A stretch of 64,000 nt of DNA from Escherichia coli. GTDB lineage: Bacteria; Pseudomonadota; Gammaproteobacteria; Enterobacterales; Enterobacteriaceae. The notes under the pieces were generated by a model. It did no database searches and was not told the DNA's origin. It saw nothing but the letters and a program-made list of their open reading frames with translations. Positions 1,528 to 42,927 of the stretch are shown here, piece after piece. Both the position numbers and the translations under genes were made by a program. Each line of letters starts with the position of its first letter. Positions within the stretch are counted from its first letter, which is position 1. The stretch is from assembly GCF_009931435.1 (NCBI RefSeq), contig NZ_CP043414.1. One strand, written 5' to 3'.

Positions 1528-4680
<3,153 letters not shown>

Positions 4681-4698
4681 TACAACGTGTAATCACTA

Positions 4699-4722
4699 AG
4701 GCCGCGCAAGCGGCCTTTTTTA
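4699..4722 (+). terminator. Rho-independent terminator after acrB
   Basis: GC hairpin ggccgc-gcaa-gcggcc followed by tttttt directly after the acrB stop. Confidence 0.7.
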
Positions 4723-5226
4723 GATGCATAACCTACGAGTTGAATGGGGAACTGAACAATCAACTCAGAATCTCATATGAAAACCAGTATTAACTTCGCA
4801 TAAAATTCATAAAAAATACTGATTGTTAGTTAATTTATATTAAGCAGGGCTAATAGATTTAATAATCCATAATCATTTAGAGGCTTTTCTTAATTATTTG
4901 CGGTAATTCTTTATTCATTCCTCGGTTATTACGACATATTCAGAGCATTCCTGGTATTAGTGTGACCAATTTCATCAGGCGATAATCTTGAAATGTTATG
5001 AACAGTTCGAGCAAACTGCTTTTACCTGCAGCGGGTTGGTGCTAGTATGAAAAAATGAGTCCTATCCCGCTTCCTTCCTATTTGTAATTTTTCGTAATAA
5101 TGCGATGAAAACCTGCAAAGAGTGGCTTATAGTTAAGCTAACAAACGAGAGGGCAAGTCCAGGTCAGTAAGTTTTTTCCATCCCGAAAGGTGTCCGTTAG
5201 TTCAACCGCTAAGAAGGGGACGCGTT

Positions 5227-32402: not shown

Positions 32403-33878
32403 ATGTCCAGTCAATATTTACGTATTTTTCAACAGCCACGTTCAGCCATATTGCTGATTCTGGGTTTTGCTTCCGGGCTACCGCTCGCCCTGACATCCGG
32501 CACCTTACAGGCCTGGATGACGGTCGAGAATATCGATCTTAAAACCATTGGTTTCTTCTCTCTGGTAGGCCAGGCTTACGTTTTTAAATTCCTCTGGTCA
32601 CCGCTGATGGATCGCTACACGCCCCCATTTTTCGGGCGGCGGCGCGGTTGGTTGCTCGCCACACAAATCCTGTTATTAGTCGCCATTGCGGCGATGGGTT
32701 TTCTCGAACCAGGCACCCAGCTCCGCTGGATGGCGGCACTGGCGGTGGTGATCGCTTTTTGCTCTGCCTCCCAGGATATTGTCTTCGATGCGTGGAAAAC
32801 CGATGTGCTCCCGGCAGAAGAGCGTGGTGCGGGCGCGGCAATCAGCGTGCTGGGTTACCGTTTAGGGATGCTGGTTTCCGGCGGCTTAGCCCTGTGGCTG
32901 GCAGATAAATGGCTGGGCTGGCAGGGCATGTACTGGTTGATGGCGGCGCTGTTGATCCCCTGTATTATCGCGACGTTACTTGCACCAGAACCAACCGACA
33001 CCGTTCCTGTGCCCAAAACGCTGGAACAAGCGGTTGTTGCACCTCTGCGCGATTTCTTTGGTCGCAATAATGCCTGGCTTATTTTGCTTCTTATCGTGCT
33101 GTATAAGCTGGGCGACGCATTCGCCATGAGCCTGACAACCACGTTTTTGATTCGCGGCGTCGGGTTTGATGCAGGTGAAGTAGGCGTGGTTAACAAAACG
33201 CTTGGCTTACTGGCGACCATTGTTGGCGCATTGTACGGTGGGATTTTGATGCAGCGCCTGTCACTGTTCCGGGCGCTGCTGATTTTCGGTATTTTACAAG
33301 GTGCGTCTAACGCCGGTTACTGGCTGCTGTCGATTACTGATAAGCATCTCTACAGCATGGGCGCAGCCGTCTTTTTCGAAAACCTCTGTGGCGGGATGGG
33401 TACATCAGCCTTTGTCGCGCTGTTAATGACGCTGTGTAATAAGTCATTTTCCGCTACTCAATTTGCCCTGCTCTCAGCGCTTTCTGCTGTAGGGCGAGTT
33501 TATGTCGGCCCCGTGGCGGGTTGGTTTGTTGAAGCACACGGCTGGTCGACATTCTATCTGTTCTCCGTCGCCGCTGCCGTACCAGGGCTTTTTTTGCTGC
33601 TGGTTTGTCGCCAGACGCTTGAATATACACGAGTAAATGACAACTTTATCTCCCGTACCGAATATCCGGCAGGTTATGCCTTTGCCATGTGGACATTGGC
33701 GGCGGGCGTCAGCCTGTTGGCCGTGTGGTTACTGCTGTTGACGATGGACGCGCTGGATTTGACGCACTTCTCTTTCCTGCCTGCGCTGCTGGAAGTCGGG
33801 GTTTTAGTCGCCCTTTCTGGTGTCGTGCTTGGTGGTTTACTGGATTATCTGGCGCTACGAAAAACGCATCTGACGTAA
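32403..33878 (+). CDS. ampG: Muropeptide (anhydromuropeptide) MFS permease AmpG (491 aa)
   Basis: ORF MSSQYLRIFQQPRSAILLILGFASGLPLALTSGTLQAWMTVENIDLKTIGFFSL... Confidence 0.97.
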   Translation: MSSQYLRIFQQPRSAILLILGFASGLPLALTSGTLQAWMTVENIDLKTIGFFSLVGQAYVFKFLWSPLMDRYTPPFFGRRRGWLLATQILLLVAIAAMGFLEPGTQLRWMAALAVVIAFCSASQDIVFDAWKTDVLPAEERGAGAAISVLGYRLGMLVSGGLALWLADKWLGWQGMYWLMAALLIPCIIATLLAPEPTDTVPVPKTLEQAVVAPLRDFFGRNNAWLILLLIVLYKLGDAFAMSLTTTFLIRGVGFDAGEVGVVNKTLGLLATIVGALYGGILMQRLSLFRALLIFGILQGASNAGYWLLSITDKHLYSMGAAVFFENLCGGMGTSAFVALLMTLCNKSFSATQFALLSALSAVGRVYVGPVAGWFVEAHGWSTFYLFSVAAAVPGLFLLLVCRQTLEYTRVNDNFISRTEYPAGYAFAMWTLAAGVSLLAVWLLLLTMDALDLTHFSFLPALLEVGVLVALSGVVLGGLLDYLALRKTHLT

Positions 33879-33889
33879 TCTGTAAATAT

Positions 33890-33934
33890 TATTTAGCCGT
33901 AGTAATCACTCGCCGTAATTATTACGGCTAAATA
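33890..33934. repeat. Inverted repeat / hairpin downstream of ampG
   Basis: tatttagccgta ... tacggctaaata, 12-bp perfect arms around a 21-nt spacer; no clear T-run. Confidence 0.4.
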
Positions 33935-34337
33935 AACATCAGCATCGCTTATTAATATTTGTTCTTTTGTGCGGCTTAGCGTCTGGAAATTATTGACGCC
34001 ATTTATGAATTCTATTTTTCTTACACGATTCAGCTAATGAGTCTTTATTTTCTCACTACCCAGTTGTCACCTTAATGATAATTATTTGTTAAATAATTGT
34101 TTTATTTTGTATTGGTTATACCAATTGCCCGCCCAAACTCCTTCTGCACTCCCCTTTCGTTATAACGCCCTTTTGCAACAGCTTCTTAAAATCAACTTGA
34201 TATGTTTTGCAACATATGTGACCTAATAGCCAAATCCAAGTAACAGGAATTTAATCATGTTTACAGTAATGTAACCTTCCCGTAAAATGCCCACACACTT
34301 TAAACGCCACCAGATCCCGTGGAATTGAGGTCGTTAA

Positions 34338-38242: not shown

Positions 38243-39133
38243 ATGATGTTTAAGCAATACCTGCAAGTAACGAAACCAGGCATCATCTTTGGCAACCTGA
38301 TCTCGGTGATTGGGGGATTCCTGCTGGCCTCAAAGGGCAGCATTGATTATCCCCTGTTTATCTACACGCTGGTTGGGGTGTCACTGGTTGTGGCGTCGGG
38401 TTGTGTGTTTAACAACTACATCGACAGGGATATCGACAGAAAGATGGAAAGGACGAAGAATCGGGTGCTGGTTAAGGGCCTGATCTCTCCTGCTGTCTCG
38501 CTGGTGTACGCCACCTTGCTGGGTATTGCTGGCTTTATGCTGCTGTGGTTTGGCGCGAATCCGCTGGCCTGCTGGCTGGGGGTGATGGGCTTTGTGGTTT
38601 ATGTCGGCGTCTACAGCCTGTACATGAAACGCCACTCGGTCTACGGCACGTTGATTGGTTCGCTCTCTGGCGCTGCGCCGCCGGTGATCGGCTACTGTGC
38701 GGTAACCGGCGAGTTCGATAGCGGCGCAGCGATCCTGCTGGCTATCTTCAGCCTGTGGCAGATGCCTCACTCTTATGCCATCGCAATTTTCCGCTTTAAG
38801 GATTATCAGGCGGCAAACATTCCGGTACTGCCAGTGGTGAAAGGCATTTCGGTAGCGAAAAACCACATTACGCTGTATATCATCGCCTTTGCCGTTGCCA
38901 CGCTGATGCTCTCTCTTGGCGGTTACGCTGGGTATAAATATCTGGTGGTCGCCGCGGCGGTTAGCGTCTGGTGGTTAGGTATGGCGCTGCGTGGTTATAA
39001 AGTTGCTGATGATCGAATCTGGGCACGCAAGCTGTTCGGCTTCTCGATCATCGCCATCACTGCCCTCTCGGTAATGATGTCCGTTGATTTTATGGTGCCG
39101 GACTCGCATACGCTGCTGGCTGCTGTGTGGTAA
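38243..39133 (+). CDS. cyoE: Heme O synthase (protoheme IX farnesyltransferase) CyoE (296 aa)
   Basis: ORF 38198..39133 trimmed to [32 protein letters not shown]... Confidence 0.93.
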
Positions 39134-39145
39134 CACAACCTCTCT

Positions 39146-39176
39146 ATAAAAAAGGTGCTACGGCACCTTTTTTATT
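39146..39176 (+). terminator. Rho-independent terminator of the cyo operon
   Basis: aaaaaaggtgc-tacg-gcacc-ttttttatt directly after the cyoE stop. Confidence 0.75.
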
Positions 39177-39212
39177 GTCTGAGAACAGAGATACGGCTAA
39201 TAACCGTATCTC

Positions 39213-39241
39213 TTGACAGAGTGAGTATATGCACATAAATT
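39213..39241 (+). promoter_or_regulatory. Putative sigma70 promoter of the antitoxin-toxin operon
   Basis: TTGACA-N17-TAAATT about 75 nt upstream of the antitoxin ATG, immediately preceded by a 9-bp inverted repeat (gagatacgg-N7-ccgtatctc, 39188..39212). Confidence 0.4.
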
Positions 39242-39317
39242 AATCATTCGGTTGATAGCCGTATTATGCATGAGATCGACTCCCTACGATTTCATTCAGT
39301 TAATCAAAGAGGTCATA

Positions 39318-39629
39318 ATGCCTGGAAAAACAGTCGCTCTACCCGATATCGATAAAACGCTGAAAAATGCGCGGGTTGAACTCAAAACCAGTCCCGACGC
39401 CAAAAACAAACTTCGTGAAGCTGCGCAAGCCGTTGGGGTAGATTTAAGCGCTTTTATTTTGAGCGCAGCTATGGAACGCGCCGAAAGTGTGCTTGATAAC
39501 CAACGTCGCCGTGAGCTTTCGAATCAAAGCTGGGAACTGATGAACCAACTCATCGCTGAACCTGCTCAACCGACGCTCGCCCTCAAGGCGTTAATGAAAA
39601 GGAAAAACAGCGATGGTCGACAAGCATGA
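39318..39629 (+). CDS. Putative type II antitoxin, DUF1778 family (TacA/AtaR-like ribbon-helix-helix), 103 aa
   Basis: ATG 39318 preceded by RBS aaagagg; product MPGKTVALPDIDKTLKNARVELKTSPDAKNKLREAAQAVGVDLSAFILSAAMERAESVLDNQRRRELSNQSWELMNQLIAEPAQP... has the size and pattern of DUF1778 antitoxins; 17-nt overlap with the downstream GNAT gene. Confidence 0.75.
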   Translation: MPGKTVALPDIDKTLKNARVELKTSPDAKNKLREAAQAVGVDLSAFILSAAMERAESVLDNQRRRELSNQSWELMNQLIAEPAQPTLALKALMKRKNSDGRQA

Positions 39630-40155
39630 AGAGATTACTCTGCCCATAGTCCTCTCCTGTAATTATCAGTCTGATATTACTTATCCTGGGCAAAAACAGT
39701 TTGATTGCGGTAACCCTGTTATCGATAAATTTGTACGCGCATCGCTAAAGAAAAGTGTGCGTAATAGCGACTGTGCTGCTAAAGCACTTATTGACAGACA
39801 AAGTGGTGAACTGATTGGCATCTGTACTTTTACGGCATATTCGCTGGAAAAACAACGCGTTTCTGGCGTCCTTCAGGGTTCACAACCTTCAGAGATTGGT
39901 GTTGTCAGATTAGTCATGTTAGGGGTAGCGCGGAAATATCAAAAGCGGGGCTTTGGTCAGGACCTACTATGTGATTTTTTTGAACATGTAAAAATAATTC
40001 ACCGGGCATTACCAATTAAAGGGGTTTATCTTGATGCTGACCCTGCCGCCATTAACTTTTATACTCGTCTCGGCTTTGTTCAGCTTTCAGCGAGGCCCAA
40101 TGTTTTCGGTGCTGTACCGATGTTTTTAGCGATTCAGCATATTCTCGCGGCTTAG
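39613..40155 (+). CDS. Putative GNAT-fold acetyltransferase toxin (TacT/AtaT/ItaT-like), 180 aa
   Basis: MVDKHEEITLP...FDCG...RLVMLGVARKYQKRGFGQDLL...INFYTRLGF carries the GNAT acetyl-CoA motif (R/Q-x-x-G-x-G/A); start overlaps the antitoxin stop, typical of translationally coupled TA pairs. Confidence 0.75.
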   Translation: MVDKHEEITLPIVLSCNYQSDITYPGQKQFDCGNPVIDKFVRASLKKSVRNSDCAAKALIDRQSGELIGICTFTAYSLEKQRVSGVLQGSQPSEIGVVRLVMLGVARKYQKRGFGQDLLCDFFEHVKIIHRALPIKGVYLDADPAAINFYTRLGFVQLSARPNVFGAVPMFLAIQHILAA

Positions 40156-40210
40156 ATTATTATCGCCTCCGGCCATGGCAAGTTTTGCCTCAGCCGGGGA
40201 CTGAGCAGCG

Positions 40211-41146
40211 TTACCACTTTTGTTCAATTGCCCCCGCTTTCATCAGGTCCACATCCTTGCCTTTAATGGTTGCCGTTGCGGCAACCATTGTGGTCCTTAT
40301 TGCTGCACAAGATTTTCGTTCAAATTCCGGTTTATAAAGAATAAGCAACGAATTACTGGTAAATGAATCAAGCCGGTAATCTGTAAAGTTAATATCCAGT
40401 CGGTTTAAGCCGAAAGGTGCAAAGCCGACCGTTTGAATAGTTTCCTTACCTGACGGACTCTTGATGTTGTACGTAACACGAAGATTGGCCACTTCGCCTA
40501 ATTTATTGGTTTTGGCAAAGAGGCTATCCATGCAGGAAAAACCTTTATCTAAAAAATTATCCCGCATTCCAGAACGGGTAATCGTGATCACAGGTAACGT
40601 ATCGTCAACCGTTTTTCTGTCAATCATATCTTTTCGACAGGTGGCCATAAAGTCTTCCGGACCAGTATAAATGTGAACACCCTTATCAAGATATTCTTTC
40701 GCTTTACTACAATCCACCTCGACATACTGACCATTGGCGTACATCATGCCCAACCTGGACCATGCTAAATTCACACCGCGTTGCGTAGCCTGATTAAATA
40801 ACGCATACGCTTTGGCATAATCCACCCGCACCTGTTCACCTTCGTAGTAGATATCCCCCAGCGCTAACGGAGCTTCTTCATCACCTTGTTTAGCGGCTAA
40901 CTCGAACCATTTAATGGCTTCCTGAACGTTGGGTTTGGTATCGTAGCGGGGCTGATAATATTCCCAGCCTAACAGGCTTTGCGCGTCGACATCCCCCGAC
41001 TCAGCCATTTTATACAGTGTCCTTATCACATCGGGGGCAGGCTTTTCACTGTATATGCTGTCATACAATTCATGCGCTTTCTCGCTTGCCAGTGAACCTT
41101 GTGAGGCAATTAATAAAATAGCCAATAAACTCTTTTCATTTAACAT
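40211..41146 (-). CDS. Secreted Sel1-like repeat (SLR/TPR-like) protein with an unassigned C-terminal domain, 311 aa
   Basis: N-terminal Sec signal peptide (MLNEKSLLAILLIASQGSLA|SE); Sel1 repeats (LGWEYYQ..., LGDIYYEGEQVRVDYAKAYALFNQATQRG, LGMMYANGQYVEVDCSKAKEYLDKG); C-terminal 160 aa unrecognised; convergent with the TA operon. Confidence 0.75.
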   Translation of the reverse strand: MLNEKSLLAILLIASQGSLASEKAHELYDSIYSEKPAPDVIRTLYKMAESGDVDAQSLLGWEYYQPRYDTKPNVQEAIKWFELAAKQGDEEAPLALGDIYYEGEQVRVDYAKAYALFNQATQRGVNLAWSRLGMMYANGQYVEVDCSKAKEYLDKGVHIYTGPEDFMATCRKDMIDRKTVDDTLPVITITRSGMRDNFLDKGFSCMDSLFAKTNKLGEVANLRVTYNIKSPSGKETIQTVGFAPFGLNRLDINFTDYRLDSFTSNSLLILYKPEFERKSCAAIRTTMVAATATIKGKDVDLMKAGAIEQKW

Positions 41147-41562
41147 AAATAACCTTTATGCATCCATCACTATATTTTTCAATAAACCTAACCACCAAAC
41201 ATCCACTTCATGAATAAATACACAGCCATAACAACCTCAGGTAATAAGTAAACATTTAAGCTGAAGCAGAATAACCAGCACCTCCAACACCTCTATTTAT
41301 TGCGATAAAATAACACCATCCTTTAATAAAAAATCACACGCTCATCAACAAATCCGAAAATAATATCATTCGTGGCAGGATAAAATCAGGCGAGCTTTTC
41401 ATTTGTTATATTTAACGCACAAAGTATTAATGGCAAGAATACGAGGGAAGCGCATGCCTGACGTAAAAATCACGCTCTTATGTAATATTTACTCATTAAC
41501 ACTCTGTTTACCCAACATGCGCTCCGCACTACACTATGTGGGCAATTTTTTAAGAGGTGGTA

Positions 41563-42927
41563 ATGAACGATTATAAAATGACGCCAGGTGAGCGGCGCGC
41601 GACCTGGGGTTTAGGGACCGTATTTTCATTGCGCATGCTGGGCATGTTTATGGTACTGCCGGTTCTAACTACGTACGGTATGGCACTGCAAGGTGCCAGT
41701 GAAGCATTAATCGGTATTGCCATTGGTATTTATGGCCTGACTCAGGCCGTTTTTCAGATTCCGTTTGGCCTGCTCTCAGACCGTATTGGTCGCAAACCAT
41801 TAATTGTCGGCGGGCTGGCGGTGTTTGCTGCCGGTAGTGTTATCGCTGCGCTTTCCGACTCAATCTGGGGAATTATTCTGGGCCGGGCGTTACAAGGTTC
41901 TGGAGCGATTGCCGCTGCCGTTATGGCGCTACTTTCTGATCTCACGCGCGAACAAAACCGCACCAAAGCGATGGCGTTTATCGGCGTGAGTTTTGGCATT
42001 ACCTTCGCCATTGCGATGGTACTTGGCCCTATCATCACTCACAAACTTGGACTGCACGCGCTGTTCTGGATGATCGCTATTCTGGCAACGACCGGTATTG
42101 CGTTGACCATTTGGGTTGTGCCCAACAGCAGCACGCACGTACTTAATCGTGAGTCCGGAATGGTGAAAGGCAGTTTCAGCAAAGTGCTGGCAGAACCGCG
42201 ACTGCTGAAACTCAACTTCGGCATTATGTGTCTGCACATGCTGCTGATGTCGACGTTTGTTGCCCTGCCCGGACAGTTGGCTGATGCGGGGTTCCCGGCG
42301 GCTGAGCACTGGAAGGTCTATCTGGCGACGATGTTAATCGCCTTTGGCTCGGTTGTGCCTTTCATTATCTACGCGGAAGTTAAGCGCAAAATGAAGCAAG
42401 TCTTTGTCTTCTGCGTCGGGCTGATCGTGGTTGCGGAAATTGTGTTGTGGAACGCACAAACGCAGTTCTGGCAACTGGTGGTCGGCGTGCAGCTTTTCTT
42501 TGTGGCGTTTAATTTGATGGAAGCCCTCCTCCCCTCGCTTATCAGTAAAGAGTCGCCAGCCGGTTACAAAGGTACGGCGATGGGCGTTTACTCCACCAGC
42601 CAGTTTCTTGGCGTGGCCATTGGCGGTTCGCTGGGTGGCTGGATTGACGGCATGTTTGACGGTCAGGGCGTATTTCTCGCTGGCGCAATGCTGGCCGCTG
42701 TGTGGCTGGCTGTCGCCAGTACCATGAAAGAACCGCCGTATGTAAGCAGTTTGCGCATTGAAATCCCATCGGACATTGCCGCAAACGAGGCGTTAAAAGT
42801 GCGTTTGCTGGAAACTGCGGGTGTCAAAGAAGTGTTGATTGCAGAAGAAGAACATTCGGCTTACGTGAAAATCGACAGCAAAGTGACGAATCGCTTTGAA
42901 GTTGAACAGGCAATTCGTCAGGCATAA
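41563..42927 (+). CDS. yajR: MFS transporter YajR (454 aa)
   Basis: ORF 41557..42927 trimmed to ATG 41563 (MNDYKMTPGERRATWGLGTVFSLRMLGMFMVLPVLTTYG...); RBS aagagg. Confidence 0.93.
   Translation: MNDYKMTPGERRATWGLGTVFSLRMLGMFMVLPVLTTYGMALQGASEALIGIAIGIYGLTQAVFQIPFGLLSDRIGRKPLIVGGLAVFAAGSVIAALSDSIWGIILGRALQGSGAIAAAVMALLSDLTREQNRTKAMAFIGVSFGITFAIAMVLGPIITHKLGLHALFWMIAILATTGIALTIWVVPNSSTHVLNRESGMVKGSFSKVLAEPRLLKLNFGIMCLHMLLMSTFVALPGQLADAGFPAAEHWKVYLATMLIAFGSVVPFIIYAEVKRKMKQVFVFCVGLIVVAEIVLWNAQTQFWQLVVGVQLFFVAFNLMEALLPSLISKESPAGYKGTAMGVYSTSQFLGVAIGGSLGGWIDGMFDGQGVFLAGAMLAAVWLAVASTMKEPPYVSSLRIEIPSDIAANEALKVRLLETAGVKEVLIAEEEHSAYVKIDSKVTNRFEVEQAIRQA

Follow-up and report, generated by a model that had tools for sequence, protein, structure and literature searches.

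The divergent spacer between a Sel1-repeat gene and yajR in Escherichia coli: a probable two-module bidirectional promoter region

Genes and base composition of the locus

The locus lies within a 64-kb window of Escherichia coli DNA (the whole stretch that was analysed), in which the gene order is cyoABCDE (plus strand), a DUF1778/TacA antitoxin gene, a GNAT toxin gene, a Sel1-repeat gene (minus strand), a non-coding spacer and yajR (plus strand). The Sel1-repeat reading frame starts at 41146 on the minus strand and yajR at the ATG at 41563 on the plus strand, leaving between them a divergent spacer of 416 bp. The genes and the spacer are as follows:

39318-39629, itaR, DUF1778/TacA antitoxin, 103 aa
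39613-40155, itaT, GNAT toxin, 180 residues
40211-41146, minus strand, Sel1-repeat gene, 311 aa, with three Sel1 repeats and a secreted-looking product
41147-41562, no strand, the whole divergent spacer, 35.8% GC
41563-42927, plus strand, flanking gene yajR (MFS transporter)

The GNAT protein matched the chain of PDB entry 7BYY over all of its 180 residues (E = 1e-115). This entry is ItaT, and the itaRT toxin-antitoxin was characterised in E. coli HS (Wilcox et al. 2018, PMC6125619). Therefore, the pair found here is the characterised itaRT module, with which it shares the GNAT toxin and the 103-aa TacA/DUF1778 antitoxin. However, the characterised itaRT promoter/operator maps to the other spacer, at 39134-39317, and neither the Sel1 gene nor the 416-bp spacer appears in the available part of PMC6125619. 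Two palindromes of this cyoE-itaR spacer, at 39187-39213 and 39246-39264 (AGAGATACGGCTA/TAACCGTATCTCT; ATACGGCTAATAACCGTAT paired with ATTCGGTTGATAGCCGTAT), look like operator sites of the ItaR-ItaT repressor complex. The N-terminus of the Sel1 protein resembles a signal peptide, and no Pfam match was detected in its C-terminal half (~150 residues).

The GC content of the spacer was 35.8% (64% AT) compared to 51.1% (49% AT) for the window, which placed it in the lowest 0.7% among all 416-bp windows. It was also compared with the 27 spacers that measure 60 bp or more within the first 50 kb, using the annotation of the collinear genome NZ_AP027764.1, whose coordinates coincide with those of the window. 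In this set the Sel1-yajR spacer ranked fourth in AT-richness and third in length (416 bp, where the median is 171 bp), and three core spacers were equally AT-rich: cof-ybaE (34.3% GC), ampG-cyoA (35.4%, 460 bp) and acrR-acrA (35.5%). Its density of A-tracts, 38.5 per kb, was usual for spacers. The native ampG-cyoA spacer (33878-34337) is longer than the one studied here, as is the native acrB-tomB spacer (4680-5225, 546 bp), of comparable AT-richness (37.7% GC).

A preliminary description of this DNA had presented the region as a non-coding, AT-rich block of about 410 bp containing three quoted A/T-rich strings and no open reading frame of plausible length. Its exact coordinates are 41147-41562, all three strings were found in it, and the longest open reading frame touching it (57 codons with a TTG start, 41403-41576) runs into the start of yajR; in matching genomes, no RefSeq annotation was found under the spacer. 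The block had also been said to exceed the core around it greatly in AT content, which is correct with respect to coding DNA but not with respect to other spacers, and the proposal that this composition marks an islet was abandoned, as native spacers are equally AT-rich. Therefore, the AT-richness is real but ordinary for promoter regions of E. coli and gives by itself no indication of foreign DNA; in E. coli intergenic DNA, it should not serve alone as a mark of islets or of H-NS.

The Sel1 gene is divergent from yajR and convergent with itaT, and therefore needs a promoter of its own within the spacer. The earlier expectation that the spacer must hold the promoters of both genes thus follows from the gene topology.

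Islet boundaries, alleles and the yajR-side module

The cyoE-yajR gap of E. coli K-12, in which yajR is on the minus strand, measures only 148 bp. When the locus was aligned to K-12, one segment was found to be absent from the latter:

39177-41483, no strand, 2,307 bp containing itaR, itaT, the Sel1 gene and the Sel1-side spacer, in place of 24 bp of K-12

The left junction falls at 39176, just past the cyo terminator. On the right side, homology to K-12 resumes at 41484 and extends to 41548 with about 61-70% identity; the local alignment of this region scored 35, while shuffled sequences averaged 17.8 with a maximum of 30, and none of 500 shuffles reached 35. In total, 337 bp of the spacer (81%) have no K-12 counterpart and the remaining ~80 bp are homologous. 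The alignment thus fixes precisely where the itaRT/Sel1 accessory segment, or islet, begins and ends. The block had been described as probably marking the right-hand junction of the islet, a view that a match of the whole block to K-12 would have refuted; no such match was seen. Most of the block is indeed absent from K-12, but the insertion point is internal, at 41483/41484, and not at its edge. Likewise, an islet origin fits the 81% without K-12 counterpart but not the yajR-proximal ~85 bp, which appear to be a conserved yajR promoter (~83% identity to L030, a locus from a different genus whose yajR is 77% identical to that of E. coli at the nucleotide level).

A population scan of 5,426 complete E. 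coli genomes showed that the locus is strictly biallelic, with the K-12-type spacer in 4,053 genomes (97-100% identical across phylogroups) and the islet type in 1,367-1,373 (~25%). Islet-bearing strains include E. coli HS, O104:H4 C227-11 and 2017-02-2CC. There are two main islet alleles: allele A, that of the window itself, was present in 17-18 genomes and allele B in ~1,350. The identities between A and B along the locus were:

itaRT, 96-100%
Sel1 gene, 96% falling to 74% toward its 5' end
Sel1 side of the spacer, 49-77%
92 bp directly upstream of yajR, 92%
yajR, 90-97%

An unusual A/B conservation of the yajR-proximal 92 bp was considered and dropped, as 92% is like the value for the coding sequence (93-96%). 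The Sel1 gene, with a dS between A and B of 0.35 (0.69 in the signal-peptide codons) and a dN/dS of 0.24, adjoins itaRT with a dS of ~0.08, and is a mosaic between alleles. In strain P19_598 the Sel1 gene is frameshifted.

When allele B was compared to K-12, the 92 bp upstream of yajR were 61% identical and the yajR coding sequence 97-100%, with the step in identity at the yajR Shine-Dalgarno/ATG. Because of the position of this step, the whole 416-bp spacer, yajR promoter included, segregates with the islet in E. coli.

The yajR-proximal part of the spacer was then aligned across eight taxa from five genera (E. coli alleles A and B, K-12, E. albertii, L030, Salmonella, Citrobacter and Kluyvera), the loci of the relatives having been retrieved via Sel1 and YajR homologues. 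The elements of this module are:

41477-41562, plus strand, predicted yajR promoter/leader module, ~83% identical to the L030 yajR upstream region and 92% between alleles A and B
41480-41502, plus strand, conserved upstream element ATGTAATATTTACTCATTAACAC, recognisable in 7 of 8 taxa
41507-41512, plus strand, predicted yajR -35 TTTACC, invariant in 8 of 8 taxa
41530-41535, plus strand, predicted yajR -10 TACACT, 17 bp past the -35, invariant in 8 of 8 taxa
41554-41560, plus strand, yajR Shine-Dalgarno GAGGTGG, from which near-identity with islet-free E. coli begins

Across the eight taxa the invariant positions were TTTACC(C), the 17-bp gap, CCGC within this gap and TACACT(A), while the flanking bases varied. 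The same TTTACC-17-TACACT arrangement (41507-41535), present in all 8 Escherichia alleles, was the top plus-strand candidate in a scan with a sigma-70 position weight matrix, built on textbook frequencies; its -10 ends 27 bp before the ATG. A simple consensus scan of 40900-41800 returned one promoter-like site, located inside yajR, which is fewer than in shuffled sequences. The last 84 bp of the spacer were ~83% identical to L030, compared to only 77% for the yajR coding sequence of the latter. The invariance across genera and the rank in the matrix scan argue strongly that 41477-41562 is the genuine, old promoter of yajR and not foreign DNA, with the two hexamers as its predicted active elements. 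Transcription of yajR would start near 41541-41544, a position deduced from the hexamers, and would produce a leader of ~20 nt with GAGGTGG. A literature search found no paper mapping the yajR transcription start, and the gain here is a well-supported prediction of a previously uncharacterised promoter.

Upstream of the hexamers, (A)TGTAATATTTACTnATTAAC was kept in most of the eight taxa aligned; of the element at 41480-41502, K-12 keeps mainly the core AATATTTACT and Citrobacter lacks the element. A second plus-strand candidate, CTGACG (41458-41463)-17-TGTAAT (41481-41486), has a -10 that overlaps this element, which could be an UP element, a regulator site or the -10 of the second candidate promoter.

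The Sel1-side module and its putative roles

The rest of the spacer constitutes a second module, with the following elements:

41147-41476, minus strand, Sel1-linked module, ~330 bp, about 65% AT (60-70%), without K-12 counterpart
41152-41157, minus strand, Sel1 ribosome-binding site AAAGGT, 5 nt upstream of the ATG (41146) and kept in every allele
41189-41220, no strand, best-conserved island of the module, TAACCACCAAACATCCACTTCATGAATAAATA, in which TGAATAAATA is invariant in all alleles
41241-41248, no strand, second invariant island, GTAATAAG, followed by conserved ATTTA and CTGAA

This module occurs only alongside the 311-aa Sel1 gene. Orthologous versions were found in E. coli alleles A and B, in cryptic-clade Escherichia and in E. 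albertii, and no homology was detected between the 330 bp and the spacers of Salmonella, L030, Citrobacter and Kluyvera. The same Sel1 gene and spacer are carried by E. coli R32_14_1F, cryptic-clade Escherichia and E. albertii, in which a gene for a hypothetical protein of 315-325 aa replaces itaRT. With 49-77% identity between alleles, the module is the fastest-diverging stretch of the locus. Given the dS of 0.35 for the Sel1 gene, this divergence is about what neutral drift predicts since the split of the Sel1 alleles; outside a few short islands of conservation, the module changes at a roughly neutral pace. Those at 41189-41220 and 41241-41248 are candidate promoter or regulator sites.

The best candidates for the Sel1 promoter in allele A were TTGGTG-18-TATAGT (41198/41174) and TTGCCA-17-AAATAT (41436/41413), neither of which is conserved in allele B. 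The sole -10-like hexamer common to all alleles lies at ~41273-41268 and has no convincing -35. A putative degenerate duplicate of the Sel1 5' end within the spacer was rejected, as its local alignment score was reached by 139 of 300 shuffles.

Taken with the yajR side, these data make it probable, at about 80%, that the spacer is a conventional bidirectional promoter/regulatory region composed of two modules with different histories. The Sel1 side (41147-41476) would carry the Sel1 ribosome-binding site, necessarily the promoter of this gene and any regulator sites, and the yajR side (41477-41562) would be the second module. The spacer resembles the divergent acrR-acrA and bolA-yajG spacers of the same E. 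coli window, which are also non-coding and AT-rich (35-43% GC) between back-to-back genes, and shares with this type a predicted sigma-70-type promoter 20-60 bp before a start codon. Unlike typical divergent spacers, it is longer and composite, with one side conserved across genera and the other linked to accessory genes and fast-diverging. By itself it is of little importance: it behaves as a normal promoter-bearing spacer in which the tests revealed no hidden gene.

The preliminary description had left room for an undetected small RNA or small protein in the block. In favour of such an unannotated gene are the length of the spacer (third among those of the first 50 kb), a weak terminator-like hairpin with a T-run (41523-41552), which lies downstream of the second promoter candidate, and the conserved start of a short ATG/GTG reading frame at 41211. 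However, this frame is shifted between alleles A and B, and the T-run is missing in L030, Salmonella and Kluyvera. A search of 38900-42000 against Rfam gave no match within the spacer at E<=1. Neither strand folded better than shuffled sequences (minus strand z = +2.07, plus strand z = +0.18), and RNAalifold, applied to the leader of yajR in eight taxa, gave -2.1 kcal/mol with zero compensatory pairs. Reading frames from all six frames were placed on an alignment of 8 alleles; outside the near-invariant yajR promoter, not one kept start, frame and sequence across the 8 alleles. The one conserved frame, of 19 codons with a GTG start on the minus strand, lies wholly inside that promoter and is trivially conserved. 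No tRNA, meaningful tandem repeat or significant internal duplication was found in the spacer. With the Rfam, folding, covariation and conserved-frame tests all negative, a hidden RNA or protein gene is highly improbable. Outside the spacer, the Rfam search also returned a sub-threshold STnc50 match at 39142-39209 on the minus strand (23.5 bits, where the gathering score is 55; E = 0.78), which sits on the cyo terminator hairpin and is almost certainly just the terminator of the cyo operon.

The bidirectional promoter reading could be complemented, and would not be excluded, by silencing through H-NS, a protein that prefers AT-rich acquired DNA. In this proposal the spacer, especially its Sel1 side, would be an H-NS nucleation/silencing site that represses the Sel1 gene and perhaps yajR. 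The 60-70% AT of the Sel1 module over ~330 bp, its linkage to accessory cargo in ~25% of strains and the lack of a strong conserved sigma-70 promoter for the Sel1 gene, as is often the case in silenced genes, are consistent with it. Against it, the AT content equals that of native spacers of the same window, and the nucleation motif TCGATAAATT had a single 8/10 match in the spacer, GCGATAAAAT at 41302-41311. The curvature that had been raised as a check was approached through AA/TT phasing, which is a proxy and not a full curvature model: the power at 10-11 bp was 0.62 (shuffles: mean 0.39, sd 0.25), and it was not significant, since 16% of shuffles were as high. The spacer is thus similar to DNA under xenogeneic silencing in being AT-rich and linked to accessory genes in about a quarter of strains, but differs from H-NS-silenced acquired DNA in that its motif and curvature proxies are unsupportive and its composition is that of native spacers. 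Binding of H-NS is plausible from composition only, and silencing is a tentative proposal; both are given somewhat less than even odds. H-NS ChIP-seq reportedly exists for ETEC H10407, a strain without the islet; no H-NS occupancy dataset was found for an islet-bearing strain, and nothing relevant emerged from the literature on H-NS with yajR and cyoE or on the HS locus tags that was searched. The sole perfect TCGATAAATT match of the 64-kb window lies inside itaT, at 39722-39731.

Cargo of the cyoE-yajR gap and variants of the predicted yajR promoter

The content of the gap between cyoE and yajR varied among the relatives as follows:

K-12: nothing
E. coli islet type: itaRT and Sel1
E. albertii: a 325-aa hypothetical protein and Sel1-311
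L030: a lone TacA, Sel1-308 and Sel1-478
Salmonella: genes for two large Sel1 proteins (~490-500 aa), in divergent orientation to yajR
Citrobacter: two DUF1493 genes
Kluyvera: a hok/gef toxin

Farther upstream of the yajR promoter, the sequences were unrelated between genera. For the 315-325-aa hypothetical protein that replaces itaRT no Pfam family was found; the loci with this alternative left cargo are L002 (1976-2953), L028 (4048-5025) and L006 (4621-5568).

The spacer might be the scar or attachment site of a mobile element that delivered the islet. The presence/absence polymorphism with sharp edges would agree with such an element, and insertion sequences do enter here (ISEc8 in strain R1, IS1 in strain 100416). 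However, the flanking direct or inverted repeats were only chance-level short matches, there is no tRNA target, and the islet contains neither integrase nor transposase. No true plasmid or phage carrying the Sel1 gene and the spacer was found, the three "plasmid" matches being chromosome-sized records of 1.2-4.8 Mb. Moreover, the presence of unrelated cargo in the same gap of other genera, next to a conserved yajR promoter, agrees with a cargo exchange in which homologous recombination acts through the flanking cyoE and yajR genes, which we infer to be the route. A mobile-element scar is accordingly given very little credence. In E. coli, the spacer segregates with the 2.3-kb accessory segment (itaR-itaT and the Sel1 gene) within a gap of variable cargo.

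Over the last 62 bp of the spacer (41501-41562), the identities between types were:

K-12 type against Citrobacter, 82%
K-12 type against E. coli islet type, 74-76%
islet type against L030 and E. albertii, 79-84%

Within E. coli, the K-12 and islet types were 99% identical in the coding sequence of yajR, despite the 74-76% over these promoter-proximal 62 bp. On these alignments, E. coli holds two deep variants of the predicted yajR promoter. The gap resembles other hotspots between conserved core genes in its variable cargo across the Enterobacteriaceae, but unlike usual hotspots it has the promoter-proximal ~62 bp of the core gene itself in two deep variants. A broader reading, in which cargo exchange at an old hotspot shared by several genera would bring the yajR promoter along, with the Sel1 side as an H-NS-silenced control region, is considered unlikely as a whole. 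If the hotspot did carry the promoter in this way, yajR regulation would also be rewired whenever the Sel1/itaRT cargo is gained or lost. The compact gap and yajR promoter of K-12 are one of two sharply different versions, which could matter when yajR expression is compared across strains.

The ISEc8 copy of strain R1, of the IS66 family (L023, 597-2909), lies ~59 bp before the start codon of yajR, right next to the predicted -35; the IS1 of strain 100416 lies within the islet.
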